A stretch of 64,000 nt of DNA, taken from the NCBI GenBank assembly GCA_030428125.1, contig JAUIBF010000001.1, positions 14,102 through 78,101 on the forward strand, in the 5' to 3' direction. Positions 1 to 56,251 of the stretch are shown piece by piece. The first letter of the stretch is position 1. Each line of letters starts with the position of its first letter. The translations under genes and the position numbers were made by a program. This DNA comes from a bacterium. GTDB taxonomy: Bacteria > Patescibacteriota > Saccharimonadia > Saccharimonadales > SZUA-47. Under the pieces are notes generated by a model. That model did not search any database and had not been told where the DNA came from. It saw only the letters and a program-made list of their open reading frames with translations.

Positions 1-58
1 CTTTCATTTTTTGATTATCTCATAAACTAAAAACAGACCCAGAAGGGTCCGTTCTTAG

Positions 59-79
59 TTTGGCTCAAGTGTAGTAGTA
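59..79 (-). repeat. cassette-boundary core only (TTTGGCTC on + strand, GAGCCAAA in gene sense)
   Basis: The 8-mer at 59-66 lies 13 nt beyond the stop codon at 80-82. In gene sense it is followed by a hairpin and a T-run. The same 8-mer occurs at 1432, 1997 and 2689, and TTGGCTC forms the 3' end of tRNA-Asn at 3139-3145. Confidence 0.4.
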
Positions 80-718
80 CTATTCTTTTGGTGATTTGAT
101 TAATAAATATCCAATCATCCAGAATTCGCCAATTGTTGCCGGCATTGGGAGTGCTTCAGTTAGTCCGTCTTGTTCCGGCAGTAAGATACCTGTGAAGGTT
201 GATAGGACGTAGCCAACACCACCTGCGACCAAAAACCACACCATTACTCTAGGCATTTTTGCTTTGTGTGCCGCATAGGCCATCGGCAACAGCCATAAAC
301 CAAAGAACAAAGTGCCAACTTGCCACAGTGTTTCGTGCGCTTCAAATAGCGTCTGAACAGTATCGCTACTACCACTAGCTAGAGCTGTGTTAAGTGCCAT
401 CAGCCAAAAAGCTGATGCAGCCAATATAACGACGGCATTTACCATGCCAAACGCGGCAATTAAACCAGCAGCAAAACTATCTTTTTTCTTAAATAATTTA
501 TAAAACCACACTGCTGCAAGTGCCTGGAATCCAACAATAAGAACTTCAGCGGCTATGCCTAGACGAGCAAGCGTTTCGTCTTTTACAAGATTAGCTGTTG
601 TTTGTGCCGCATCATCGACGACAAACAACTGATCTCTTGCAAATAAAAATGCGAAAACCCCAGTTATTGCTAGGCCTAAGTAAAATAATCCAGTCCACCT
701 TGCTGTTGTTAATTTCAT
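80..718 (-). CDS. DUF4386-like integral membrane protein
   Basis: 212-aa ORF with multiple hydrophobic helices. The N-terminus RWTGLFYLGLAITG resembles DUF4386. An AAGGAG SD lies upstream. Confidence 0.5.
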   Translation of the reverse strand: MKLTTARWTGLFYLGLAITGVFAFLFARDQLFVVDDAAQTTANLVKDETLARLGIAAEVLIVGFQALAAVWFYKLFKKKDSFAAGLIAAFGMVNAVVILAASAFWLMALNTALASGSSDTVQTLFEAHETLWQVGTLFFGLWLLPMAYAAHKAKMPRVMVWFLVAGGVGYVLSTFTGILLPEQDGLTEALPMPATIGEFWMIGYLLIKSPKE

Positions 719-742
719 TAGTATTCTCCTTTAATCGTGTAG

Positions 743-907
743 TTATTTGTCTGATTTGGTTTTAATTTCGTATGCAGCCATTAACAGAATCCCGGTTCCT
801 AGTCCGATAAACAAACCTGCCAGAAGTGCCCCCGTTAAAAAGCCGACACCCATGCCAATCAATAGGCAACCCGGTACAAATGCTGCACTTGGGCTATTCT
901 TTTTCAT
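743..907 (-). CDS. small membrane protein (54 aa, below the ORF-track cutoff)
   Basis: Hand translation gives MKKNSPSAAFVPGCLLIGMGVGFLTGALLAGLFIGLGTGILLMAAYEIKTKSDK. An AAAGGA SD lies about 6 nt upstream. This is more plausible than the overlapping + ORF 747..1043. Confidence 0.5.
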   Translation of the reverse strand: MKKNSPSAAFVPGCLLIGMGVGFLTGALLAGLFIGLGTGILLMAAYEIKTKSDK

Positions 908-953
908 AAAAAATCCTTTCCCTTTATCCTTGACTCCAGTGTCTCATAAATCT

Positions 954-980
954 AAAAACGAGCCAAAGTGGCTCGTTTTT
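954..980. terminator. Rho-independent terminator hairpin (bidirectional A-run/T-run)
   Basis: AAAAA-CGAGCCA-aag-TGGCTCG-TTTTT: a 7-bp perfect stem flanked by A and T runs. Confidence 0.6.
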
Positions 981-981
981 A

Positions 982-1030
982 TTTGGTTCACAACAATAGA
1001 GCAAGTCATAACTGCAATTAAACAAGATTT
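982..1030 (-). repeat. 49-nt cassette-end repeat, copy A
   Basis: tttggttcacaacaatagagcaagtcataactgcaattaaacaagattt. It has 5 mismatches to copy B and ends 9 nt from the stop codon at 1040-1042. Confidence 0.75.
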
Positions 1031-1039
1031 AGTCTTTAA

Positions 1040-1390
1040 CTAGGTATCGGTTTCTAGCGGAATCCAACCGCCTTTGCCATCGCTAAGTGCCTCAACCGTA
1101 GTAGTATGGTCAAAACATTGTTCAACGGCTTTAGCTATTACTTGCCGAGCACGTTCGTCATTTTCTACTTCGTCGACTGTCCCCGGTCTCATGCCGTAAT
1201 CATCACCGAGTACATCACTGCGGTCGGAGAAAACATAGACTCGTCCCTCTTCAGGTTGTTGCCATAGGACAAAATCCAGCCTTCCTCTCCAATAGTGTCT
1301 ACCAAAACTTACTGCATCGAAATCCCTTCGTTTTGTTTCGGGATCAAATTCTCCTAGTGCAACTATTTCTACGTTACCAACATCCGCCAT
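1040..1390 (-). CDS. hypothetical protein (116 aa from the internal ATG)
   Basis: The ORF-track entry is 1040..1408. The ATG at 1388-1390 is preferred because a TTGACA-17-TATGGT promoter overlaps the upstream TTG start. No recognisable domain. Confidence 0.5.
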   Translation of the reverse strand: MADVGNVEIVALGEFDPETKRRDFDAVSFGRHYWRGRLDFVLWQQPEEGRVYVFSDRSDVLGDDYGMRPGTVDEVENDERARQVIAKAVEQCFDHTTTVEALSDGKGGWIPLETDT

Positions 1391-1399
1391 AATAAAAAC

Positions 1400-1428
1400 A
1401 CCATACAATCATAAATGTATAGTGTCAA
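1400..1428 (-). promoter_or_regulatory. sigma70-type promoter, near-leaderless
   Basis: In minus sense: TTGACA (1428-1423), a 17-nt spacer, TATGGT (1405-1400), then 9 nt to the ATG at 1390. Confidence 0.5.
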
Positions 1429-1431
1429 TAT

Positions 1432-1480
1432 TTTGGCTCACAACGATAGAGGCAGTCATAACTGCAATTAAGCAAGATTT
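1432..1480 (-). repeat. 49-nt cassette-end repeat, copy B
   Basis: tttggctcacaacgatagaggcagtcataactgcaattaagcaagattt. It overlaps the stop codon at 1479-1481 by 2 nt and contains the small hairpin GCAGT-cata-ACTGC. Confidence 0.75.
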
Positions 1481-1934
1481 ACTTATTACTTAGTTCTACG
1501 AGTCTATCTACAAATACTCGCTTCCAGTACCACATTGAAACCCAACCAAACAAAGGTTTTGCAAAAATTCGTAACAATACGTTTGCTTTGGAGAGGTCAT
1601 ACATATACGAATATGTAATTTTTGTACCTTCTTCCGTATCTTCCATTAAAAATTCTTCATGACCTGTTGCCTTGAATTTATGATTTTTATTGTCAGATAT
1701 GAAACCTTTTCCGGGAACGAGGGTTGTTCGCATGGTGACGGGTATTGGCGGTATGCCTAGTGACTTTGCCTTTGCATGTATCAAGAGATTGTTCCCATCT
1801 CTTTCAATAATTTCTATTGAGTGAGCTACTTTTGGGAAGTACTTTGGCATGTTTTCAAAGTCGCTTACAATTTTGTACATCGAATCTCGCTGTGCTTTAA
1901 CTATCCAAGAGGCTTTGAGGTGTATTTTCTTCAT
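1479..1934 (-). CDS. SRPBCC (polyketide cyclase/START-like) family protein
   Basis: 151 aa. The N-terminal pattern IVKAQRDSMYKIVSDFENMPKYFP is typical of SRPBCC ligand-binding folds. Confidence 0.55.
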   Translation of the reverse strand: MKKIHLKASWIVKAQRDSMYKIVSDFENMPKYFPKVAHSIEIIERDGNNLLIHAKAKSLGIPPIPVTMRTTLVPGKGFISDNKNHKFKATGHEEFLMEDTEEGTKITYSYMYDLSKANVLLRIFAKPLFGWVSMWYWKRVFVDRLVELSNK

Positions 1935-1996
1935 AATTTAATCATACCCCAAAATAGAATAAGAGGCACTAGACCTCTGTTATTCTTGGTTATAAC

Positions 1997-2045
1997 TTTG
2001 GCTCACAACAATAGAGGAAGTTATAACTGTGACTAAACAGGACCT
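1997..2045 (-). repeat. 49-nt cassette-end repeat, copy C
   Basis: tttggctcacaacaatagaggaagttataactgtgactaaacaggacct. The first ~33 nt are nearly identical to copies A and B, and the rest is partly conserved. It ends 3 nt from the stop at 2049-2051. Confidence 0.7.
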
Positions 2046-2048
2046 AAC

Positions 2049-2567
2049 TTACTCTTTTTTTGACGAATCTCTGTCGTAGTAACGTTTGACCATGTATACT
2101 CTCGCGAGCGATTCAACTAAAAGAAGACCTAGTAAAAAGGCGACAATTATAGGGAAAACTCCGGTTTCGGGCAGTATATCTTGTTCTGCAAATATTTTAA
2201 TAACAATAAGTGCTGCAAGAGATAATGCAGCTTCCTTATTAGTGTGAAGTACAACAGCCTTATATTTTGGGTAAGCTCTGATGTATGTAGTTTTTGCACG
2301 ATAAGCTCCAAACCAAATACCAAGTATAACGCCAGCTGCAATTGCAAATATGTGTAAAAAACTATTTGCGATGTCAGTAGCCACTAGTGTGCCTACAATA
2401 ATAATTGCAACTAAAGGCTCCAAATACTGCATACGGAGCGTTCGAAAGCGATGAAATTTCTTTAAAGTAATATCATCATTTTCCTTTACAATTGCATTGC
2501 TGCGCCTAAACTCTTTAGCAATGACTACTAATAGCACTAAAACAGCTAATGTACTAAATTGCTCCAT
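2049..2567 (-). CDS. integral membrane protein, unknown function
   Basis: 172 aa with about 4 hydrophobic segments and no recognised motif. Confidence 0.45.
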   Translation of the reverse strand: MEQFSTLAVLVLLVVIAKEFRRSNAIVKENDDITLKKFHRFRTLRMQYLEPLVAIIIVGTLVATDIANSFLHIFAIAAGVILGIWFGAYRAKTTYIRAYPKYKAVVLHTNKEAALSLAALIVIKIFAEQDILPETGVFPIIVAFLLGLLLVESLARVYMVKRYYDRDSSKKE

Positions 2568-2688
2568 GGCCTTAAGTCTCCTATCTACAATCTATTTAAT
2601 AAAATTATACTAGTATCTGGATTTAAATTCTATTCTGGGCATACAAAAGTCAGAACCATATCTACAGTTCTGACTTAGTCTTTCTTGG

Positions 2689-2730
2689 TTTGGCTCTCCC
2701 TAGTGGACATACTCCGCAACGAACAAGACT
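2689..2730 (-). repeat. degenerate cassette-end repeat with intact core
   Basis: tttggctctccctagtggacatactccgcaacgaacaagact. The TTTGGCTC core is exact. The arm matches copies A-C at roughly 60 percent by eye. In gene sense a terminator hairpin (2648-2677) follows. Confidence 0.4.
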
Positions 2731-2755
2731 ATTTATGTAATAACAATTCTATTAA

Positions 2756-3070
2756 CTATACGTTAGAAAAACTGGCCTTAATCGCGAAGTAACGACGACG
2801 TCTCCAGTCTACGCCATTTTGTTTGAGGCAGTACTTAAACTTACGGTAATTCATAGTGTGTTTTGCGCCGTTACACATGTAGCAAGATGCAACCAAGTTG
2901 TTAAGTTCTGTTTTCCCACCTTTAGAAAAGGGTATCTTGTGGTCAACATGAAACCCTTTGACGCTAAGTTCTATGCCGCAATAATGACAACTACCTTTAT
3001 CAAGGTTATAAACCTCAGTTCTTTGCAGACTATTTGCATATCTAAGTACCGCCTCGGCCATAATTTGCAT
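2756..3070 (-). CDS. HNH endonuclease
   Basis: CHYCG...HVDHKIPFSKGG...NNLVASCYMCNGAKH is the canonical HNH/zinc-finger signature. Confidence 0.85.
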   Translation of the reverse strand: MQIMAEAVLRYANSLQRTEVYNLDKGSCHYCGIELSVKGFHVDHKIPFSKGGKTELNNLVASCYMCNGAKHTMNYRKFKYCLKQNGVDWRRRRYFAIKASFSNV

Positions 3071-3139
3071 ATTCTACAACAAAAGTATTAAAAAGTCAAT
3101 ATATACACTTAGCTTACCTTAGTTGCGAAGTGCGTACAT

Positions 3140-3214
3140 TGGCTCCGGAGACTGGATTCGAACCAGCGACCTCGAAGTTAACAGCTTCTTGCTCTACCAC
3201 TGAGCTACTCCGGA
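3140..3214 (-). tRNA. tRNA-Asn (GTT), CCA encoded
   Basis: The reverse complement TCCGGAGTAGCTCAGTGGTAGAGCAAGAAGCTGTTAACTTCGAGGTCGCTGGTTCGAATCCAGTCTCCGGAGCCA folds as a cloverleaf. The anticodon loop is CTGTTAA. Confidence 0.9.
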
Positions 3215-3247
3215 ATATCTTCTTATGTCTCTTGTTGCTCAGGAAAA

Positions 3248-3316
3248 GAGCAGCCGGAGCGTCGGATTTATTCCGCGCACCGCGCGATGAGAAAAACCTG
3301 GGTTTTTCTCATGAGC
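3248..3316 (-). ncRNA. unclassified two-hairpin RNA motif, copy 1 (5' leader of tRNA-Asn)
   Basis: Sense sequence: TCATGAG-AAAAACCcagGGTTTTT-CTCATCGCGCGGTGCG-CGGAATAAATCCG-ACGCTCCGGCTGCTC. It is homologous to 31701-31768 with compensatory stem changes and lies between a consensus promoter and the tRNA. Confidence 0.5.
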
Positions 3317-3337
3317 GAAGCGACATATCAGAGGTAG

Positions 3338-3366
3338 ATTATACGTTTTTTTGAGATTATCGTCAA
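3338..3366 (-). promoter_or_regulatory. consensus sigma70 promoter for the leader and tRNA-Asn
   Basis: In minus sense: TTGACG (3366-3361), a 17-nt spacer, TATAAT (3343-3338). Confidence 0.65.
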
Positions 3367-3418
3367 TTTAAAACTTTGCCCTTTATCTTTTACACTCAAA
3401 CAATATACTAGAACCTGT

Positions 3419-4195
3419 ATGACTATTATTGAGGCGATGTTACTTGGGCTGGTACAAGGGTTAACAGAATTCATACCTGTTTCTAGTTCAGGGCATTTGA
3501 TAATTGCACATGAATTATTTGATACCACAAGTGATAGTTTGGCTTTTGATGTAGCGCTGCATATAGGAACTTTGCTCGCACTACTACTATTCTTTAAAAA
3601 AGACATTATGAAATTACTAAAAAACTTGTTTAAGAAAAACAAGGATGGAGCTCTGGCTAGATTAATCCTATATGCCACTATCCCGGCTGTAATAGTTGGT
3701 TTGTTATTCGGTGGAATCATTGATGATCACGCTAGGACTACGCTAGTAGTAGCGTGTACGCTAGGGGTAGTAGGAGTAATTATGCTTCTGTCAGAAAAGT
3801 GCGCTAGCAGTAGTGTGGATAAGGATAACGTCCCGTCGACGAAACAGGGGTTAATTGTAGGTTTTGCGCAGAGTTTAGCATTAATCCCTGGAGTTTCTAG
3901 GTCAGGCGCAACAATGACAGCAGGCTTCTTTGTGGGAATGAGCAGAGAGCAAGCTGCAAGATTTTCGTTTCTGCTATCCATACCTATAATTGCCGGATCA
4001 GCTGCAGGAATAATGATTAGGGATGCAGACTCCCTGAACTTTGATTCAACTTTATTAATAGGAGTTATTACTGCATTTGCAAGTGGGCTGTTCGCCATTA
4101 AATTTATGTTACGAATAATTGGCAAGGTTGGTTTGAAACCTTTTGCATACTACAGAATCGTGATGGCTGCAGTGGTAGCGTTGTTTTTAGTGTAG
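3419..4195 (+). CDS. uppP: undecaprenyl-diphosphate phosphatase
   Basis: The N-terminus LLGLVQGLTEFIPVSSSGHLII and the later PGVSRSGATM motif are BacA/UppP signatures. The protein is polytopic. Confidence 0.9.
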   Translation: MTIIEAMLLGLVQGLTEFIPVSSSGHLIIAHELFDTTSDSLAFDVALHIGTLLALLLFFKKDIMKLLKNLFKKNKDGALARLILYATIPAVIVGLLFGGIIDDHARTTLVVACTLGVVGVIMLLSEKCASSSVDKDNVPSTKQGLIVGFAQSLALIPGVSRSGATMTAGFFVGMSREQAARFSFLLSIPIIAGSAAGIMIRDADSLNFDSTLLIGVITAFASGLFAIKFMLRIIGKVGLKPFAYYRIVMAAVVALFLV

Positions 4196-50862: not shown

Positions 50863-52767
50863 TTAAACTAGGTTCTTTTCTATGTAGTCTTTAAGGTCTT
50901 TCACGAACTTAGCATAGTCAGACGTAATGTCGTCATACTTAAAGCTATCAAATACTGCCGTCTTAAGCTCTTTAAAGATCGTTTTGATCTCGTCACTGTT
51001 TCTGCCGTCGCTGATCAGCTGGTCTTTGATGTATTTAAGCTTGTTATGTGCCGGCAGGCTTGAGGCGCTTACAGTGAACTCGTTGCCTAGTTTTTTAGTT
51101 ACTGCGCTAACTGAACTAGAAAGAAGCTCATTCTTAATAAAGTCTTCGCCAGTTATCGCATTAGTATTTTTTGAAATCTGCTTGTAGGTCAGCCATTTGA
51201 TTTCATGACCCCACTCATTGTAGTTTTTCTGATTATCCTTAGCCGCTGTATCGTTATCACTTACGATGAGCCCCTTTCTCTCAGCAGCTTCAAGCGTAGG
51301 CACTAAGGACCTGAACGAAGGTGCCCCGGAACCATGAACAATACCAAGCTGGCTAAAGAACTGTTTGTGGTTTTTCGTAGTGTACTTCTTAAATAACTGC
51401 TTGTCTCTCCAGCCCTCAAAAAGCAGGTTTACCTCTTTTAGATGTTCGAAAGTAGAATAGTTAATTGCATTGAATATAACTTCTTCATCTACAATATTTC
51501 CTTCGTTTCCTTCCTCTAAACTAGTTACTTCGCGATCCTTTCTTACAATATAGTGCCTTGAAATATCATGTCTATCGATCATAAAAATAGAGTGAGTCGA
51601 GTAGACTACCTGATTATTTGTTGATACTTTCAGCAACTCATCCCTAAAGTACCTTGCCCCGGAGGGGTGAAGGCCGATTTCTGGTTCGTCAATCAGTATA
51701 AGCGCGTCCTGGAGCTTACCAGTATGTGAGGTGCTCGAAATACTAAGCAGGAAAGCAATGAACTTCTTGAACCCGTCACTCCTGTCTTTGAATTGGAAAT
51801 CGTTCTCTTCAGATATGCTGCACTGTATTTTTGTCCCGTCCATTTGCAAAGTAAAACTAACATCACCATACTCTTTCCAGACAGTTGCTAAATACTCGGT
51901 CGCTTTTTCGTGGACTCTTTTTAGTAGGTTGTTTAAGCGTGTTGGACCTTTTTCTTTTTCTGCTTTAATAGTGCTCGGTATATCTTCAATCCCCGCCAGA
52001 TTAAACATGTTCTTTAGTGAAAGAAACTTTTTAGGATCTTCCATGAACTTGGCTAAATTAACGTGAGACGGCAAGAAGTCCTGCTCTTCAAACTCCCAAA
52101 AAATAACTTCAGGCAGATTGTCCTTCATGTACTGGATTAAGCTGCCGTGAACAAGATCTGAAAAGTTGTCAAAAGTTGCTACCGCGAGATAGCCCTCAGG
52201 AATTTTTTGGTGTTCTTCTTCTGACAACTTGGCTAGCTTTAATGCGCCTAATGTTGTCTTTAGTCCTTCTTCGTCAGTATACTCAAAGTCTTCGGGGCAT
52301 TTTGAGGTTATCTTATACCAGCCGTCTGTAATGTCGTACTTCTCGTCATATGTAAAATATTGACCAGATTTACTTTCTTTAGGGACATTAACCTTGTATT
52401 GGAGGTGTTCAAATGTTCTTATGAAACCGTATACAGTAAGCGCCTCGTCACCTATACTCGCAATTTTAGCCCTTGGCCCGGCTAGGATTTGAGCATTTAA
52501 AATATCCCTAACTGCCTCGTGATCCTTCTTCTCAAGCTTAAACTTAAACTTGATGCACGATTCATCAACCTGCGCCTCATCTCCTAGAGGCTGCCTCTCG
52601 TCTGACTTGTGGGGTGCGTATTCTGGTGAAAGTGTTGCAAGGGCGTTTAGTACGTTTGATTTGCCCGACTCATTAATACCAACTAAAACTCTGCAGCTTG
52701 GATCAAATGTAACAACCTGATGTTTTATAGACCTGTAGTTTATGATTGTTGATTCTACTAGTTTCAT
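50863..52767 (-). CDS. OLD-family / PARIS-like ATPase-TOPRIM protein
   Basis: Walker A GINESGKSNVLNAL and Walker B LILIDEPEIGLHP. The C-terminus LLFEGWRDKQLF ... LIVSDNDTA fits the TOPRIM E-G and DxD motifs. Confidence 0.6.
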   Translation of the reverse strand: MKLVESTIINYRSIKHQVVTFDPSCRVLVGINESGKSNVLNALATLSPEYAPHKSDERQPLGDEAQVDESCIKFKFKLEKKDHEAVRDILNAQILAGPRAKIASIGDEALTVYGFIRTFEHLQYKVNVPKESKSGQYFTYDEKYDITDGWYKITSKCPEDFEYTDEEGLKTTLGALKLAKLSEEEHQKIPEGYLAVATFDNFSDLVHGSLIQYMKDNLPEVIFWEFEEQDFLPSHVNLAKFMEDPKKFLSLKNMFNLAGIEDIPSTIKAEKEKGPTRLNNLLKRVHEKATEYLATVWKEYGDVSFTLQMDGTKIQCSISEENDFQFKDRSDGFKKFIAFLLSISSTSHTGKLQDALILIDEPEIGLHPSGARYFRDELLKVSTNNQVVYSTHSIFMIDRHDISRHYIVRKDREVTSLEEGNEGNIVDEEVIFNAINYSTFEHLKEVNLLFEGWRDKQLFKKYTTKNHKQFFSQLGIVHGSGAPSFRSLVPTLEAAERKGLIVSDNDTAAKDNQKNYNEWGHEIKWLTYKQISKNTNAITGEDFIKNELLSSSVSAVTKKLGNEFTVSASSLPAHNKLKYIKDQLISDGRNSDEIKTIFKELKTAVFDSFKYDDITSDYAKFVKDLKDYIEKNLV

Positions 52768-54594: not shown

Positions 54595-54642
54595 AAAGAG
54601 CCAATAACACTATAAAATAGTTGTAGTGAAAGGTACAACACT

Positions 54643-56220
54643 ATGAATAATCAAAGAACCAAGAAAGCCGTTGCATATATTAGGGTTTCAAGCACTATGC
54701 AAAAGGACAACGAAAGTCCTGATACGCAACACGCAAAAATTCAGGAATATGCTAACTCAAATGGGATTGAGATTATCAAAGACGGCTGGTTCTTTGATGA
54801 AGCAAAAAGTGGTAAAAATGCAGACCGTGAAGAGCTGCAGAACATGCTTAAGTTTGCTCTTTCGCGGAGAGACAAGATTGATCACGTAATAGTTTACAAA
54901 ATGAGCCGCGCTTCTAGGGACCTGTACTCATACATCACACAAGTGCAAATGGCACTAAGATCAAAAGGTATCACAATGAGATCCGCCACGGAGCCAATTG
55001 ATGATACAAAAATGGGAAGGTTCATGGAAAACTTGTACGTCATACTTGCCCAGCTCGATAATGACAGCAAAGCAGAATATACGCTCGATAACATGAAATC
55101 GCTTGCCGCGCAGGGCTATTATCAACACTCGCCACCGACTGGATACGATAACGCTAAGCTGCCTAATGCTATGGGGAAGCCAAGACCTTCGCTTAAACAA
55201 AATGACATGGCGCCAAAAGTAAAGAATGTCCTCGAAAGGTTTAGTAAGGGTGGTATCACGAAAGCCGAGCTCAAAAGATATGCCGATTCTATCGGATTGA
55301 GGAGTAGGTATGGCAAGAAGATGAGTGAAGATTCAATTAATCGCATGCTTGGCAATGCGACATATGCAGGCTTTATTAAGGATAGATTCACTGATCACAA
55401 ACAAGTAGCTGGTAGGCATGAGCCAATCATTACCCCAGAAGTTTATGAGTTAAACCAGGCGCTTCTTTACGGCAGGAACACCCGTAAAGATGAGGTACAC
55501 AAGCGTAAGAACGAGAGCTATGTACTGAAAGGAACATTGATGTGTATCGGATGTAACAACCCTTTGTACGCTTCGGCGCCACGCACTGGAAATGGTGGAT
55601 ATTCTCCAAGATATCATTGTGGACGCGGCTGTAAATCACCATCCATAAAAGCAAATATTGTGCATGAGGACTTTGAGCGTTTGCTTGATGAGCTTAAGCC
55701 TTCTGAAGGCGTGCTCAAATTGTACAAACAAGTGTTGATTCAAGAAGCCAATAAGGCACTAGGCGCTCTTAATGGCCGTATATCAGCTGTACGAGATGAG
55801 CTTGACGAGATTGCTGTAAAACGGGCTAACGGAATTGAAATGTTCGCCGGTGGAGAGTTGTCTATAGAAGAAAAGAACGTATTAATAGACAGTTTGGATC
55901 AAAAGAAGCTAGAAACCCAATTAAGACTGCATGACCTTGAGCAACTGCAGAATATTCGTGAATCTGACATAGATGCTGCGATCAACTTTATGGGTAGCGT
56001 CAACGAGCAGTGGAAGAACAGTAACTTCGATAACAGAGTTAGGTTCCAAAACATACTATTTCCTCAAGGTATTACGTATAATCTCGCCGAACAAGAGTTT
56101 GGAACCTCACAAATGAGTCCGCTTTATAGATTGGTGGAACGAAAAAGAGACTCCGGAGAGTCTCAAAAATCTTACTTGGTAGCGGGGGCAGGACTCGAAC
56201 CTGCGACCTCTTGGTTATGA
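54643..56220 (+). CDS. large serine recombinase (integrase)
   Basis: The N-terminal resolvase domain AVAYIRVSSTMQ contains the catalytic Ser region, with the later YKMSRASRD. A recombinase domain, the Cys cluster CIGCNNPLY...YHCGRGC and a coiled coil follow. The last 44 nt are antisense to the tRNA. Confidence 0.85.
   Translation: MNNQRTKKAVAYIRVSSTMQKDNESPDTQHAKIQEYANSNGIEIIKDGWFFDEAKSGKNADREELQNMLKFALSRRDKIDHVIVYKMSRASRDLYSYITQVQMALRSKGITMRSATEPIDDTKMGRFMENLYVILAQLDNDSKAEYTLDNMKSLAAQGYYQHSPPTGYDNAKLPNAMGKPRPSLKQNDMAPKVKNVLERFSKGGITKAELKRYADSIGLRSRYGKKMSEDSINRMLGNATYAGFIKDRFTDHKQVAGRHEPIITPEVYELNQALLYGRNTRKDEVHKRKNESYVLKGTLMCIGCNNPLYASAPRTGNGGYSPRYHCGRGCKSPSIKANIVHEDFERLLDELKPSEGVLKLYKQVLIQEANKALGALNGRISAVRDELDEIAVKRANGIEMFAGGELSIEEKNVLIDSLDQKKLETQLRLHDLEQLQNIRESDIDAAINFMGSVNEQWKNSNFDNRVRFQNILFPQGITYNLAEQEFGTSQMSPLYRLVERKRDSGESQKSYLVAGAGLEPATSWL
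56176..56184. repeat. right direct repeat (attR core) TTGGTAGCG
   Basis: Identical to 50743-50751. Confidence 0.6.
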
Positions 56221-56251
56221 GCCAAGCGAGCTGCCGCTGCTCCACCCCGCG
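56177..56251 (-). tRNA. tRNA-Met (CAT), initiator-like
   Basis: The reverse complement is CGCGGGGTGGAGCAGCGGCAGCTCGCTTGGCTCATAACCAAGAGGTCGCAGGTTCGAGTCCTGCCCCCGCTACCA. The 5' CGCGGGGTGGAGCAGC and the unpaired 1:72 position resemble bacterial tRNA-fMet. Confidence 0.85.

Follow-up and report, generated by a model that had tools for sequence, protein, structure and literature searches.

Downstream of its tRNA-Asn(GTT) gene, a 64,000-nucleotide stretch of the Saccharibacteria contig JAUIBF010000001.1 (the whole of which we call the window) carries five small units, each closed by the 7-mer that marks the 3' end of that tRNA gene or, in one case, by a variant of it. Comparison with related loci leads us to regard it as probable that the window holds one of a Saccharibacteria-specific set of small-cassette arrays, which are anchored at tRNA-Asn, have no integrase of their own, and change by site-specific recombination at a 7-bp core under the action of an enzyme supplied in trans. 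The first-pass annotation of the window had proposed a tRNA-anchored cassette array mobilised in trans; the array is borne out by its junctions, by indels between related loci and by the reshuffling of cassettes, and its trans-acting recombinase is something that we infer.

The tRNA-Asn gene that anchors the array occupies positions 3140-3214 of the minus strand (ARAGORN; Rfam tRNA, 67.6 bits). Its 3' end (..CTCCGGAGCCA) reads ..GGAGCCA and is followed by an A, and the first core, GAGCCAA at 3139-3145 (-) (core 0), thus consists of the last bases of the tRNA (the discriminator G plus CCA) and the base that follows them. To the left of the tRNA every real gene is on the minus strand, and five minus-strand units lie 3' of it, measuring 449, 692, 565, 450 and 923 bp from core to core. 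In gene sense a unit ends in GAGCCAAA, or in GAACCAAA for the unit that ends at 982; the plus-strand positions given earlier for these sites (TTTGGCTC at 59, 1432, 1997 and 2689, and TTTGGTTC at 982) are correct. There are seven copies of the 8-mer TTTGGCTC on the two strands of the whole window, where shuffled sequences predict 2.57, and all four plus-strand copies are packed into 2.7 kb (about 0.05 expected), each just 3' of an open reading frame (ORF). The possibility, raised by the first-pass annotation, that the core is a general intergenic or terminator motif is not supported by a survey of the 24 GAGCCAA 7-mers in the window: only the four array cores lie under no ORF of at least 90 amino acids. 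The copies at the tRNA end and at 54598 lie only beneath an opposite-strand reading frame that we judge spurious, the copy at 960 is inside the terminator hairpin of the fifth cassette, and the remaining copies are in coding sequence.

In three units a 49-nt terminal repeat stands before the core. With nhmmer its copies are found at 982, 1432 and 1997, each with an E of about 1e-17, and nowhere else in the window; between copies A and B, 5 of the 49 positions differ, as had been noted. We call such pre-core sequences arms, and this one family F1. The arm of the unit nearest the tRNA had been taken for a degenerate version of the 49-nt repeat. That assignment was wrong, and the arm (..GTCCACTAGCGG followed by GAGCCA) belongs to a separate recurrent family, F3, which has 18 copies in 13 other loci.

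Searches outside the window show that these sequences are a family associated with tRNA-Asn. When one genome per species (185,579 species) was scanned with the final 20 nt of the F1 repeat, 18 loci were found, of which 16 are in Saccharibacteria metagenome-assembled genomes (MAGs) and two are chance matches within coding sequence; a stricter 29-nt pattern found the F1 arm in 103 stretches of metagenome contigs, 80 of which were returned as loci. In these 16 species genomes and 103 metagenome stretches the repeat is placed in gaps between ORFs, as an element of this kind had been expected to be. Wherever a tRNA-Asn is in range it is a tRNA-Asn(GTT) upstream of the arm and on the same strand (6 of 6 genome and 22 of 22 metagenome loci), at a distance of 0.4 to 6.5 kb; in none of these 28 loci is it downstream or on the opposite strand. 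The 80 metagenome loci contain only two other tRNAs, and the arrays span lineages with at least five different tRNA-Asn sequences. At one locus (L070) the apparent tRNA-Asn that anchors the array is interrupted at 3838-4071 by a group I intron (Rfam RF00028, 82 bits), and ARAGORN misses this tRNA.

The anatomy of the arrays is shown by sequence comparison of about 97 loci, to which the statistics of this paragraph apply. Intergenic GAGCCA is found 221 times in the sense and 27 times in the antisense orientation, compared with 176 and 135 times in coding sequence; about 140 of the 221 are the F1 arms through which loci were collected or tRNAs, and the rest still exceed the antisense copies about threefold. 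The 131 core-to-core units have a median length of 802 bp (interquartile range 575-1392); exactly one ORF is present in 75 of them and none in 11, and their ORFs are mostly in sense orientation (173 against 46 antisense, or 79% sense). There are 13 recurrent families of arms and 24 recurrent classes of post-core sequence, and the two combine almost freely, F1 being paired with 16 of the recurrent post-core classes and the real tRNA end with nine. The three largest post-core classes, which are terminator-like hairpins, have 48, 27 and 16 copies. Immediately before the core, F1 reads RGTTATAACTTCCTCTATYGTTGT (106 copies, a number inflated by ascertainment), F3 reads AGTTGCGAAGTGCGTCCACTAGCGG (18 copies), F2 reads GTCCGTGACCTGTAAGCG (10 copies) and a further family reads GTTCGCAACTCGTCnGCTAGnGT (9 copies); smaller families with various sequences have two to three copies each, and in 27 copies the core is preceded by the tRNA-Asn 3' end of a real tRNA.

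All arm families end in GAGCCA, and 175 non-redundant junctions have GAGCCA(A) as their boundary core. In these junctions a T at -11 and Cs at -10 and -9 are common to all arm families and to the tRNA, where they form the 3' strand of the T-stem. Conservation is one-sided, being strong to the left of the core, while to its right only +7 and +8 are informative. Some arms copy the geometry of the tRNA, with GGTTCAAGACC, 8 nt and GAGCCAA where the tRNA has GGTTCGAGTCC, 8 nt and GAGCCAA. About 31 nt of F1 are nearly invariant. The F1, F2 and F3 arms are not tRNA fragments; a minority of arms carry 18 nt of the tRNA end.

The sequence that follows a core travels with the gene downstream of it. A DHH-family cassette, for example, is always preceded by the hairpin of post-core class (i), yet what lies in front of that hairpin is an F3 arm, a tRNA fragment or the tRNA itself, and three different sequences follow the cassette; these are three contexts in three distinct genomes, a fourth locus (L041) being near-identical to one of the others (L013). 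A cassette therefore consists of a terminator hairpin, usually a promoter, an ORF, an arm and a core. Most cassettes start with a terminator-like hairpin and several have promoter-like hexamers (found by consensus scans only), an arrangement that argues for self-contained units, which may not depend on a platform promoter. The cargo is very diverse: its 749 ORFs group into 568 clusters, and 456 of these clusters have a single member. Pfam matches include class A beta-lactamase-family, M15 dipeptidase-like, and nucleotidyl- and phosphotransferase-like genes, as well as zeta-toxin/CPT-like kinase, Fic, DNA methylase, restriction-modification, Ham1, NUDIX/QueC-like and nucleoside hydrolase genes. 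Directly after the tRNA comes a gene for an HNH endonuclease in the window and varied cargo at other loci, with no adjacent integrase. ORF-less units of about 165-180 nt between two cores occur at L002 (1718-1885 of the oriented copy), L013 (3289-3453) and L019 (1623-1788), there is another at L132 (7616-7971), and such units recur in several genomes. In each, a terminator is followed by two or three hairpins and then by the last 11-18 nt of a true tRNA-Asn. Rfam matches none of them; they may be empty cassettes, or may encode a small RNA.

Had the locus been static among relatives, near-identical strains should have agreed in it; instead they differ by single cassettes bounded by GAGCCAA, and such comparisons show gain, loss and reshuffling of cassettes at the core. 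The clearest case is L049 versus L086, which are 100% identical over 382 nt (tRNA included) and over the 2814 nt that follow, apart from 980 bp that L049 has in addition, placed exactly at the tRNA-Asn end with GAGCCAA on both sides. This insert comprises a terminator, a 248-amino-acid endonuclease/exonuclease/phosphatase-family ORF and an arm, and has no integrase. Only seven identical bases flank it, and the arms on its two sides differ. A new cassette has in this case been inserted at one fixed primary site, the 3' core of tRNA-Asn, and since the L049 cassette sits exactly at the equivalent 7-mer, core 0 of the window is, on this sequence comparison, the primary attachment site, in the role of an attB or attI. 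The L049 cassette has ends (ACTAGATACCC.. and ..GACCGTTAAGCT) that do not form inverted repeats, and the duplicated 7-mer is identical at all junctions, and a transposon of the miniature inverted-repeat transposable element (MITE) or insertion sequence (IS) type was therefore rejected. L086 also has, relative to L049, a 2.4-kb insertion upstream of tRNA-Asn that encodes a surface protein and a sortase. In a second pair, L086 and L092 (99.97% identical), L086 has one extra 661-bp cassette of the Ham1 family between two cores, and a 58-nt direct repeat flanks this indel.

Other comparisons show the same cassette in different company. L009 and L069 share one cassette that is 99.2% identical from core to core among unrelated neighbours; the F1 arms that precede it differ up to 6 nt before the core, and identity starts at the core. 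L050 and L081 likewise have in common a cassette that starts at the core; what precedes it is an arm in one of them and a tRNA-like end in the other. The third cassette of the window, which encodes an SRPBCC protein, is 86% identical to part of L133 over 511 nt, with a match that begins one base before the core; upstream of it L133 has the F2 arm of a NUDIX cassette where the window has the F1 arm of cassette 2, so that the shuffling predicted for this array, with homology starting at the core behind a different neighbour, is seen for one of the window's own cassettes. A homologue of the SRPBCC gene is found in the fifth unit of the tRNA-Asn array of a complete 1.23-Mb Saccharibacteria genome (CP064992.1; locus L132), and another on a further contig, where it immediately follows a LexA-like gene, which in this other lineage is located ahead of tRNA-Asn. 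At seven loci of that lineage the same core genes lie upstream and different arrays follow. The LexA-like gene, just upstream of tRNA-Asn, encodes a small protein (about 140-158 amino acids) with only a LexA_DNA_bind domain, and it is present at L036, L049, L063, L064, L086, L094, L101 and on the contig of P0005.

In the mechanism that we favour, the layout of a cassette is fixed. A terminator hairpin stands immediately after a 7-bp core; a promoter usually comes next, then one ORF (sometimes a few), and at the end an arm of about 25-47 nt and the core GAGCCA(A). The arms imitate the T-arm and acceptor side of the tRNA gene, with their GTTCGAA-like motif, and an enzyme encoded elsewhere and acting in trans would recognise this tRNA-like arm side and cut within GAGCCAA. 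Crossover inside the 7-bp core would insert, excise and exchange cassettes: a circular cassette, in which arm, core and terminator are joined, would recombine either with the tRNA 3' end or with the core of a resident cassette. With insertion at both kinds of site, new units would pile up behind the tRNA and older ones would decay distally. We infer that the recombinase is a dedicated one, with a tyrosine recombinase as our first guess at its class, and that a circular intermediate is involved. An identity of 7 bp is too short for RecA-dependent exchange and the breakpoints are not scattered, which argues against simple homologous recombination.

Several points weigh against this mechanism. 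The first is that no candidate enzyme for its central step was found. We searched with phmmer and tblastn all ORFs and six-frame translations of about 100 loci (about 540 kb), with E. coli XerD, gamma-delta resolvase and the window's own serine recombinase as single seeds, and found no recombinase in them; when about 60 ORFs from the arrays and their surroundings were compared with Pfam, the serine recombinase at tRNA-Met discussed below was the only recombinase or transposase to appear, the 37 array ORFs so examined yielding none, and the Pfam matches of L001 and L132 include no integrase. Absence of a recombinase from the arrays fits action in trans, and a very divergent or novel recombinase among the unannotated ORFs may escape such searches. 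Second, a search of contigs for terminal overlaps found no circular cassettes, and no excision junction was found. Third, a simple tyrosine-recombinase core, with its two inverted binding sites, would not usually be conserved on one side only; the enzyme could be a tyrosine recombinase whose crossover falls at the margin of the site, as it does in integrons, but could also be a serine recombinase or single-strand nuclease. Fourth, the L086/L092 indel could equally be a deletion by homologous recombination. Finally, the loci were gathered through the F1 arm, on MAG and metagenome contigs that are short, and F1 counts are inflated because that arm itself collected the loci.

The alternative that survives best, which we nevertheless think unlikely, has the same architecture with different chemistry: the enzyme would read only one side of the junction, and would take the place of a classical tyrosine integrase working on duplex DNA. 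It could be a large serine recombinase or an HUH/Y1 single-strand nuclease (of the IS200/IS605 or IS91 type), or the reaction could proceed on single strands as in integrons. Such an enzyme would suit a conservation that lies almost entirely on the arm side of the core and the strong hairpin with which every cassette begins. Saccharibacteria import single-stranded DNA by natural transformation, which also speaks for it, as does the large serine recombinase encoded in the window's genome at 54643-56220. Folding of the arms speaks against it: predicted single-strand DNA folds of nine arms from six families and of the tRNA end have z-scores around zero (-1.4 to +0.9), and RNAalifold on 27 F1 copies found only a weak 7-bp stem with no compensatory change. 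Without a significant fold or covariation, the arms are therefore not attC sites. The 5' hairpins belong to many unrelated classes and so look like ordinary terminators, and no HUH-type ORF was seen among the Pfam-scanned cargo.

The serine recombinase is also poorly placed for this role. It is a 525-amino-acid protein (Pfam Resolvase, Recombinase and Zn_ribbon_recom) encoded at 54643-56220 (+), and the last 44 nt of its gene run antisense into the 3' part of a tRNA-Met gene at 56177-56251 (-), so that it probably belongs to a separate integrative element at tRNA-Met. No relative of it was found near any array in the roughly 100 loci, and no repeat of the tRNA-Met end lies within 20 kb. Just to its left, at 50863-52767 (-), a 634-amino-acid AAA_15/AAA_21 (AbiEii-like) ATPase is encoded beside two unannotated ORFs, and could be defence cargo of the tRNA-Met element. 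A GAGCCAA at 54598-54604 (+), 45 nt before the start of the recombinase gene, is outside the array and under no sense-strand ORF, a property shared by only two other extra-array copies in the window, those of the tRNA end and the hairpin at 960; it lacks the arm signature (C at -10), and is therefore probably a chance occurrence.

Improbable, in our estimate, is a process with no dedicated recombinase at all, in which arms, tRNA and terminators would serve as portable homology for natural transformation followed by RecA-dependent or homology-facilitated recombination. The 58-nt direct repeat around the L086/L092 indel, the near-invariance of some 31 nt of F1, and the recurrence of the same post-core classes within one array would all be natural under it. 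The other comparisons are harder to reconcile with it: the L049 insertion has only its seven identical flanking bases and differing arms, and the arms of L009 and L069 differ almost to the core, from which identity begins. Homologous exchange would spread breakpoints along shared sequence, whereas more than 170 non-redundant junctions show one constant 6-7-mer joint between unrelated left and right sequences.

We give marginally less credence still to an ordinary tRNA-linked island, in which integrase-carrying prophages or integrative elements would have inserted in tandem and decayed to cargo and att scars. Some units do carry true tRNA-Asn 3' fragments of at least 18 nt, some distal arm-like strings look decayed, and scans of IMG/VR found a phage-like contig with a 33-nt tRNA-Asn 3' segment. 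This contig (IMGVR_UViG_3300033074_000763; L129, about 3180-3280 of the oriented copy) has lysin and ssDNA-annealing-type genes and a partial tRNA-Asn without a D-arm, whose last 33 nt are the 3' end of Saccharibacteria tRNA-Asn and which is followed by a terminator; no integrase lies within the 10 kb examined, and the partial tRNA may be an attP. Apart from it, the IMG/VR scans with the F1, F2 and F3 arms and two tRNA-Asn ends returned chance hits and phage tRNA clusters, and when the array was compared by blastn with plasmid and phage collections, the tRNA gene alone matched; the arms are thus on no phage or plasmid record in the collections searched. Nor do the arrays look like remnants, for no integrase or fragment of one was found in the 540 kb, and the units are uniformly small, usually with one ORF, and are complete terminator-promoter-ORF-arm modules. 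In L049, moreover, an integrase-less 980-bp unit is the sole difference in a tRNA-distal flank of 3.2 kb that is otherwise 100% identical.

The arm and core might, lastly, be an RNA-level element at mRNA 3' ends (a tRNA-end mimic for processing or stability) to which the array is incidental, as could be imagined from an arm that begins 0-10 nt past the stop codon, precedes a terminator and imitates the T-loop, the acceptor strand and GCCA, and this we consider very improbable, since there is no Rfam match, conserved fold or covariation, the motif is confined to the tRNA-Asn locus and not spread over the genome's genes, and the core-bounded indels would be left unexplained. A known RNA family was looked for with Rfam (E up to 10) in window positions 1-4000 and seven related loci, where only tRNA, noise and, elsewhere, a group I intron were found.

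Cassette arrays mobilised in trans, which we continue to favour, invite comparison with several known systems. Integrons are likewise one-orientation arrays of mostly one-ORF cassettes of about 0.5-1 kb; their cassette-end site shares a short core with a fixed primary site where insertion occurs, and their cargo is extremely diverse and includes resistance-like, toxin or defence genes. The present arrays are not classical integrons, as the first-pass annotation had already concluded: they lack a folded attC, a GTTRRRY core and an adjacent integrase. Integrons have the IntI gene by the array and a GTTRRRY core, while here the primary site is a tRNA 3' end, analogous to attI and not the same site, with GAGCCAA as core; attC sites are hairpins, and the cassette-end sites here are families of non-folding sequence; integron cassettes rely on the promoter Pc, and these appear to bring their own terminator and often a promoter. 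The hosts also differ, the arrays described here being found in a phylum of the candidate phyla radiation (CPR). Clusters of attC sites lacking integron-integrases (CALINs) resemble them as cassette arrays that have no linked integrase and are presumed to be served in trans, but are defined by attC sites, which are absent here.

Small modules that lack a recombinase and depend on a host-encoded one at short sites are also known among Xer-dependent elements (the pdif modules of Acinetobacter, and integrative mobile elements exploiting Xer, or IMEX), whose 28-bp dif-like XerC/XerD sites are frequently arranged as inverted pairs or located at the terminus. The arrays resemble them in their small recombinase-less gene modules. 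They differ in that all sites are in direct orientation behind a tRNA; inspection of the boundaries, with no formal dif model run, showed no dif-like 11-6-11 dyad, and the local GC skew, which is not terminus-like, speaks against a dif or terminus origin. Cis-mobilizable elements (CIMEs) are kilobase-scale, att-flanked deletion derivatives of integrative and conjugative elements (ICEs), a few per genome, with the ICE's own att sites; in streptococci they accrete site-specifically with ICEs, in tandem, at the 3' end of a tRNA or other gene. Like CIMEs, the units here are bounded by their site (the core), no recombinase was found in their loci, an integrase would have to come from another element, and accretion is in tandem at a tRNA 3' end. 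Unlike CIMEs, they form a population of miniature cassettes with several arm families and no known parent element; no autonomous element with these sites was found in IMG/VR or in the phage and plasmid collections.

The tycheposons and tRNA-adjacent islands of Prochlorococcus share with the arrays a specific tRNA, repeated site-specific integration, newer material near the tRNA, and tRNA-derived repeats that mark the joints (bioRxiv 10.1101/2020.12.28.424599). Tycheposons, however, carry their own integrase and hallmark replication genes and have att sites of about 40 nt of partial tRNA (bioRxiv 10.1101/2020.12.28.424599), whereas the arrays have one-gene cassettes in which neither an integrase nor hallmark replication or mobility genes were found, a common core of 7 nt (as at L049) and non-tRNA arm families. 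The arrays thus work like integrons, CALINs and CIMEs served in trans and share the tRNA anchor of tycheposons, but defining features of integrons, CALINs and tycheposons are missing, and the sequences point to a cassette-array system operating by site-specific recombination for which we found no earlier description. Full-text searching of the literature, whose coverage was incomplete, so that an earlier description is possible, found no account of such arrays.

The five cassettes of the window, all on the minus strand, have the following layout. Cassette 1 (2690-3138, 449 bp; core GAGCCAA at 2690-2696) has a promoter-like site at 3099-3071 (promoter scan), the HNH endonuclease ORF at 2756-3070 (Pfam HNH, 3e-14) and the F3-family arm at 2697-2733, identified by family match. 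Cassette 2 (1998-2689, 692 bp; core 1998-2004) starts with a class (i) terminator hairpin, GTCAGAAC..GTTCTGAC, at 2649-2674, a post-core sequence with 48 copies across 37 loci, and continues with an ORF for a 172-amino-acid membrane protein (2049-2567) and copy C of the F1 arm (2005-2048, nhmmer). Cassette 3 (1433-1997, 565 bp; core 1433-1439) has a terminator-like hairpin at 1978-1962 (hairpin scan), the SRPBCC ORF at 1479-1934 (Pfam Polyketide_cyc) and F1 copy B at 1440-1481 (nhmmer). Cassette 4 (983-1432, 450 bp), with the variant core GAACCAA at 983-989, has a promoter-like site and hairpin at 1428-1397 (promoter and hairpin scans), an ORF of 116 or 122 amino acids with no assigned function at 1040-1408, and F1 copy A at 990-1036 (nhmmer). 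Cassette 5 (60-982, 923 bp; core GAGCCAA at 60-66) begins with a perfect bidirectional terminator hairpin at 953-981, whose stem contains GAGCCAAAGTGGCTC, a core-like 8-mer and its complement, which explains the minus-orientation TTTGGCTC at 960; it encodes a 54-amino-acid membrane protein (743-907) and a DUF4386 protein (80-718; Pfam DUF4386, 1e-47), and the arm before its core matches no recognised family. Past this last intact core there is a terminator hairpin at 36-49 (hairpin scan). The gene content reported earlier thus agrees with Pfam for HNH, SRPBCC and DUF4386, the other array ORFs having no Pfam hit, and the terminator-like hairpins after the cores at 1997, 1432, 982 and 59 and the promoter-like sites before the HNH and 116-amino-acid ORFs were found again.

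The 10 kb beyond window position 1 (on contig L001) contain no further intact core or F1 arm. Intergenic strings like decayed arms are present there at L001 5764-5907 and 6268-6470, which is 2.6-3.3 kb past window position 1 (for example GGTTAAGACTCCAGTGGAGCTGTGGGCAAA, after an HD_4 gene), and two genes of this region have homologues within arrays of other loci; the array may continue past position 1 as older, eroded cassettes. Apart from the SRPBCC protein, none of the cassette proteins of the window has a homologue among the fetched loci. Look-ups of the exact UppP, DUF4386 and SRPBCC proteins matched only contigs of the same sample, and there is therefore no strain-level comparison for the window's exact genome. 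In the short-read assembly (Logan contigs of ERR3428546) there are breaks inside tRNA-Asn, at L001 position 1 and at L023: one contig stops within the tRNA, and the other starts some 233 nt ahead of uppP. The start or end of several metagenome contigs likewise falls at an arm or core. Contig breaks of this kind would be expected from junctions that are repeated, or that are polymorphic within the population.

The genomes of Saccharibacteria, like those of other CPR bacteria, are tiny and hold few recognised mobile elements, and to our knowledge the route by which they acquire accessory genes is largely unknown. On balance we lean towards the broader view that Saccharibacteria own an independently invented gene-capture platform analogous to integrons, in which self-contained cassettes that mimic a tRNA end dock at the 3' end of the single tRNA-Asn gene, with a recombinase encoded elsewhere in genomes of about 1 Mb, and that this platform would be a main route for them to defence, resistance-like and surface functions. 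The array system can be used as bait for finding that recombinase, the conserved arm and core offer PCR handles for metagenomics of the cassettes, and the core site could be a docking point for engineering these hard-to-manipulate bacteria. If our reading is true, integrons would be joined by these arrays as the second example of one-gene cassette arrays that arise through site-specific recombination, with a site logic unlike that of integrons (duplex arms that imitate the end of a tRNA, and a terminator in the cassette itself), and a cassette system anchored at one tRNA would give Saccharibacteria a concrete and testable route of gene acquisition.

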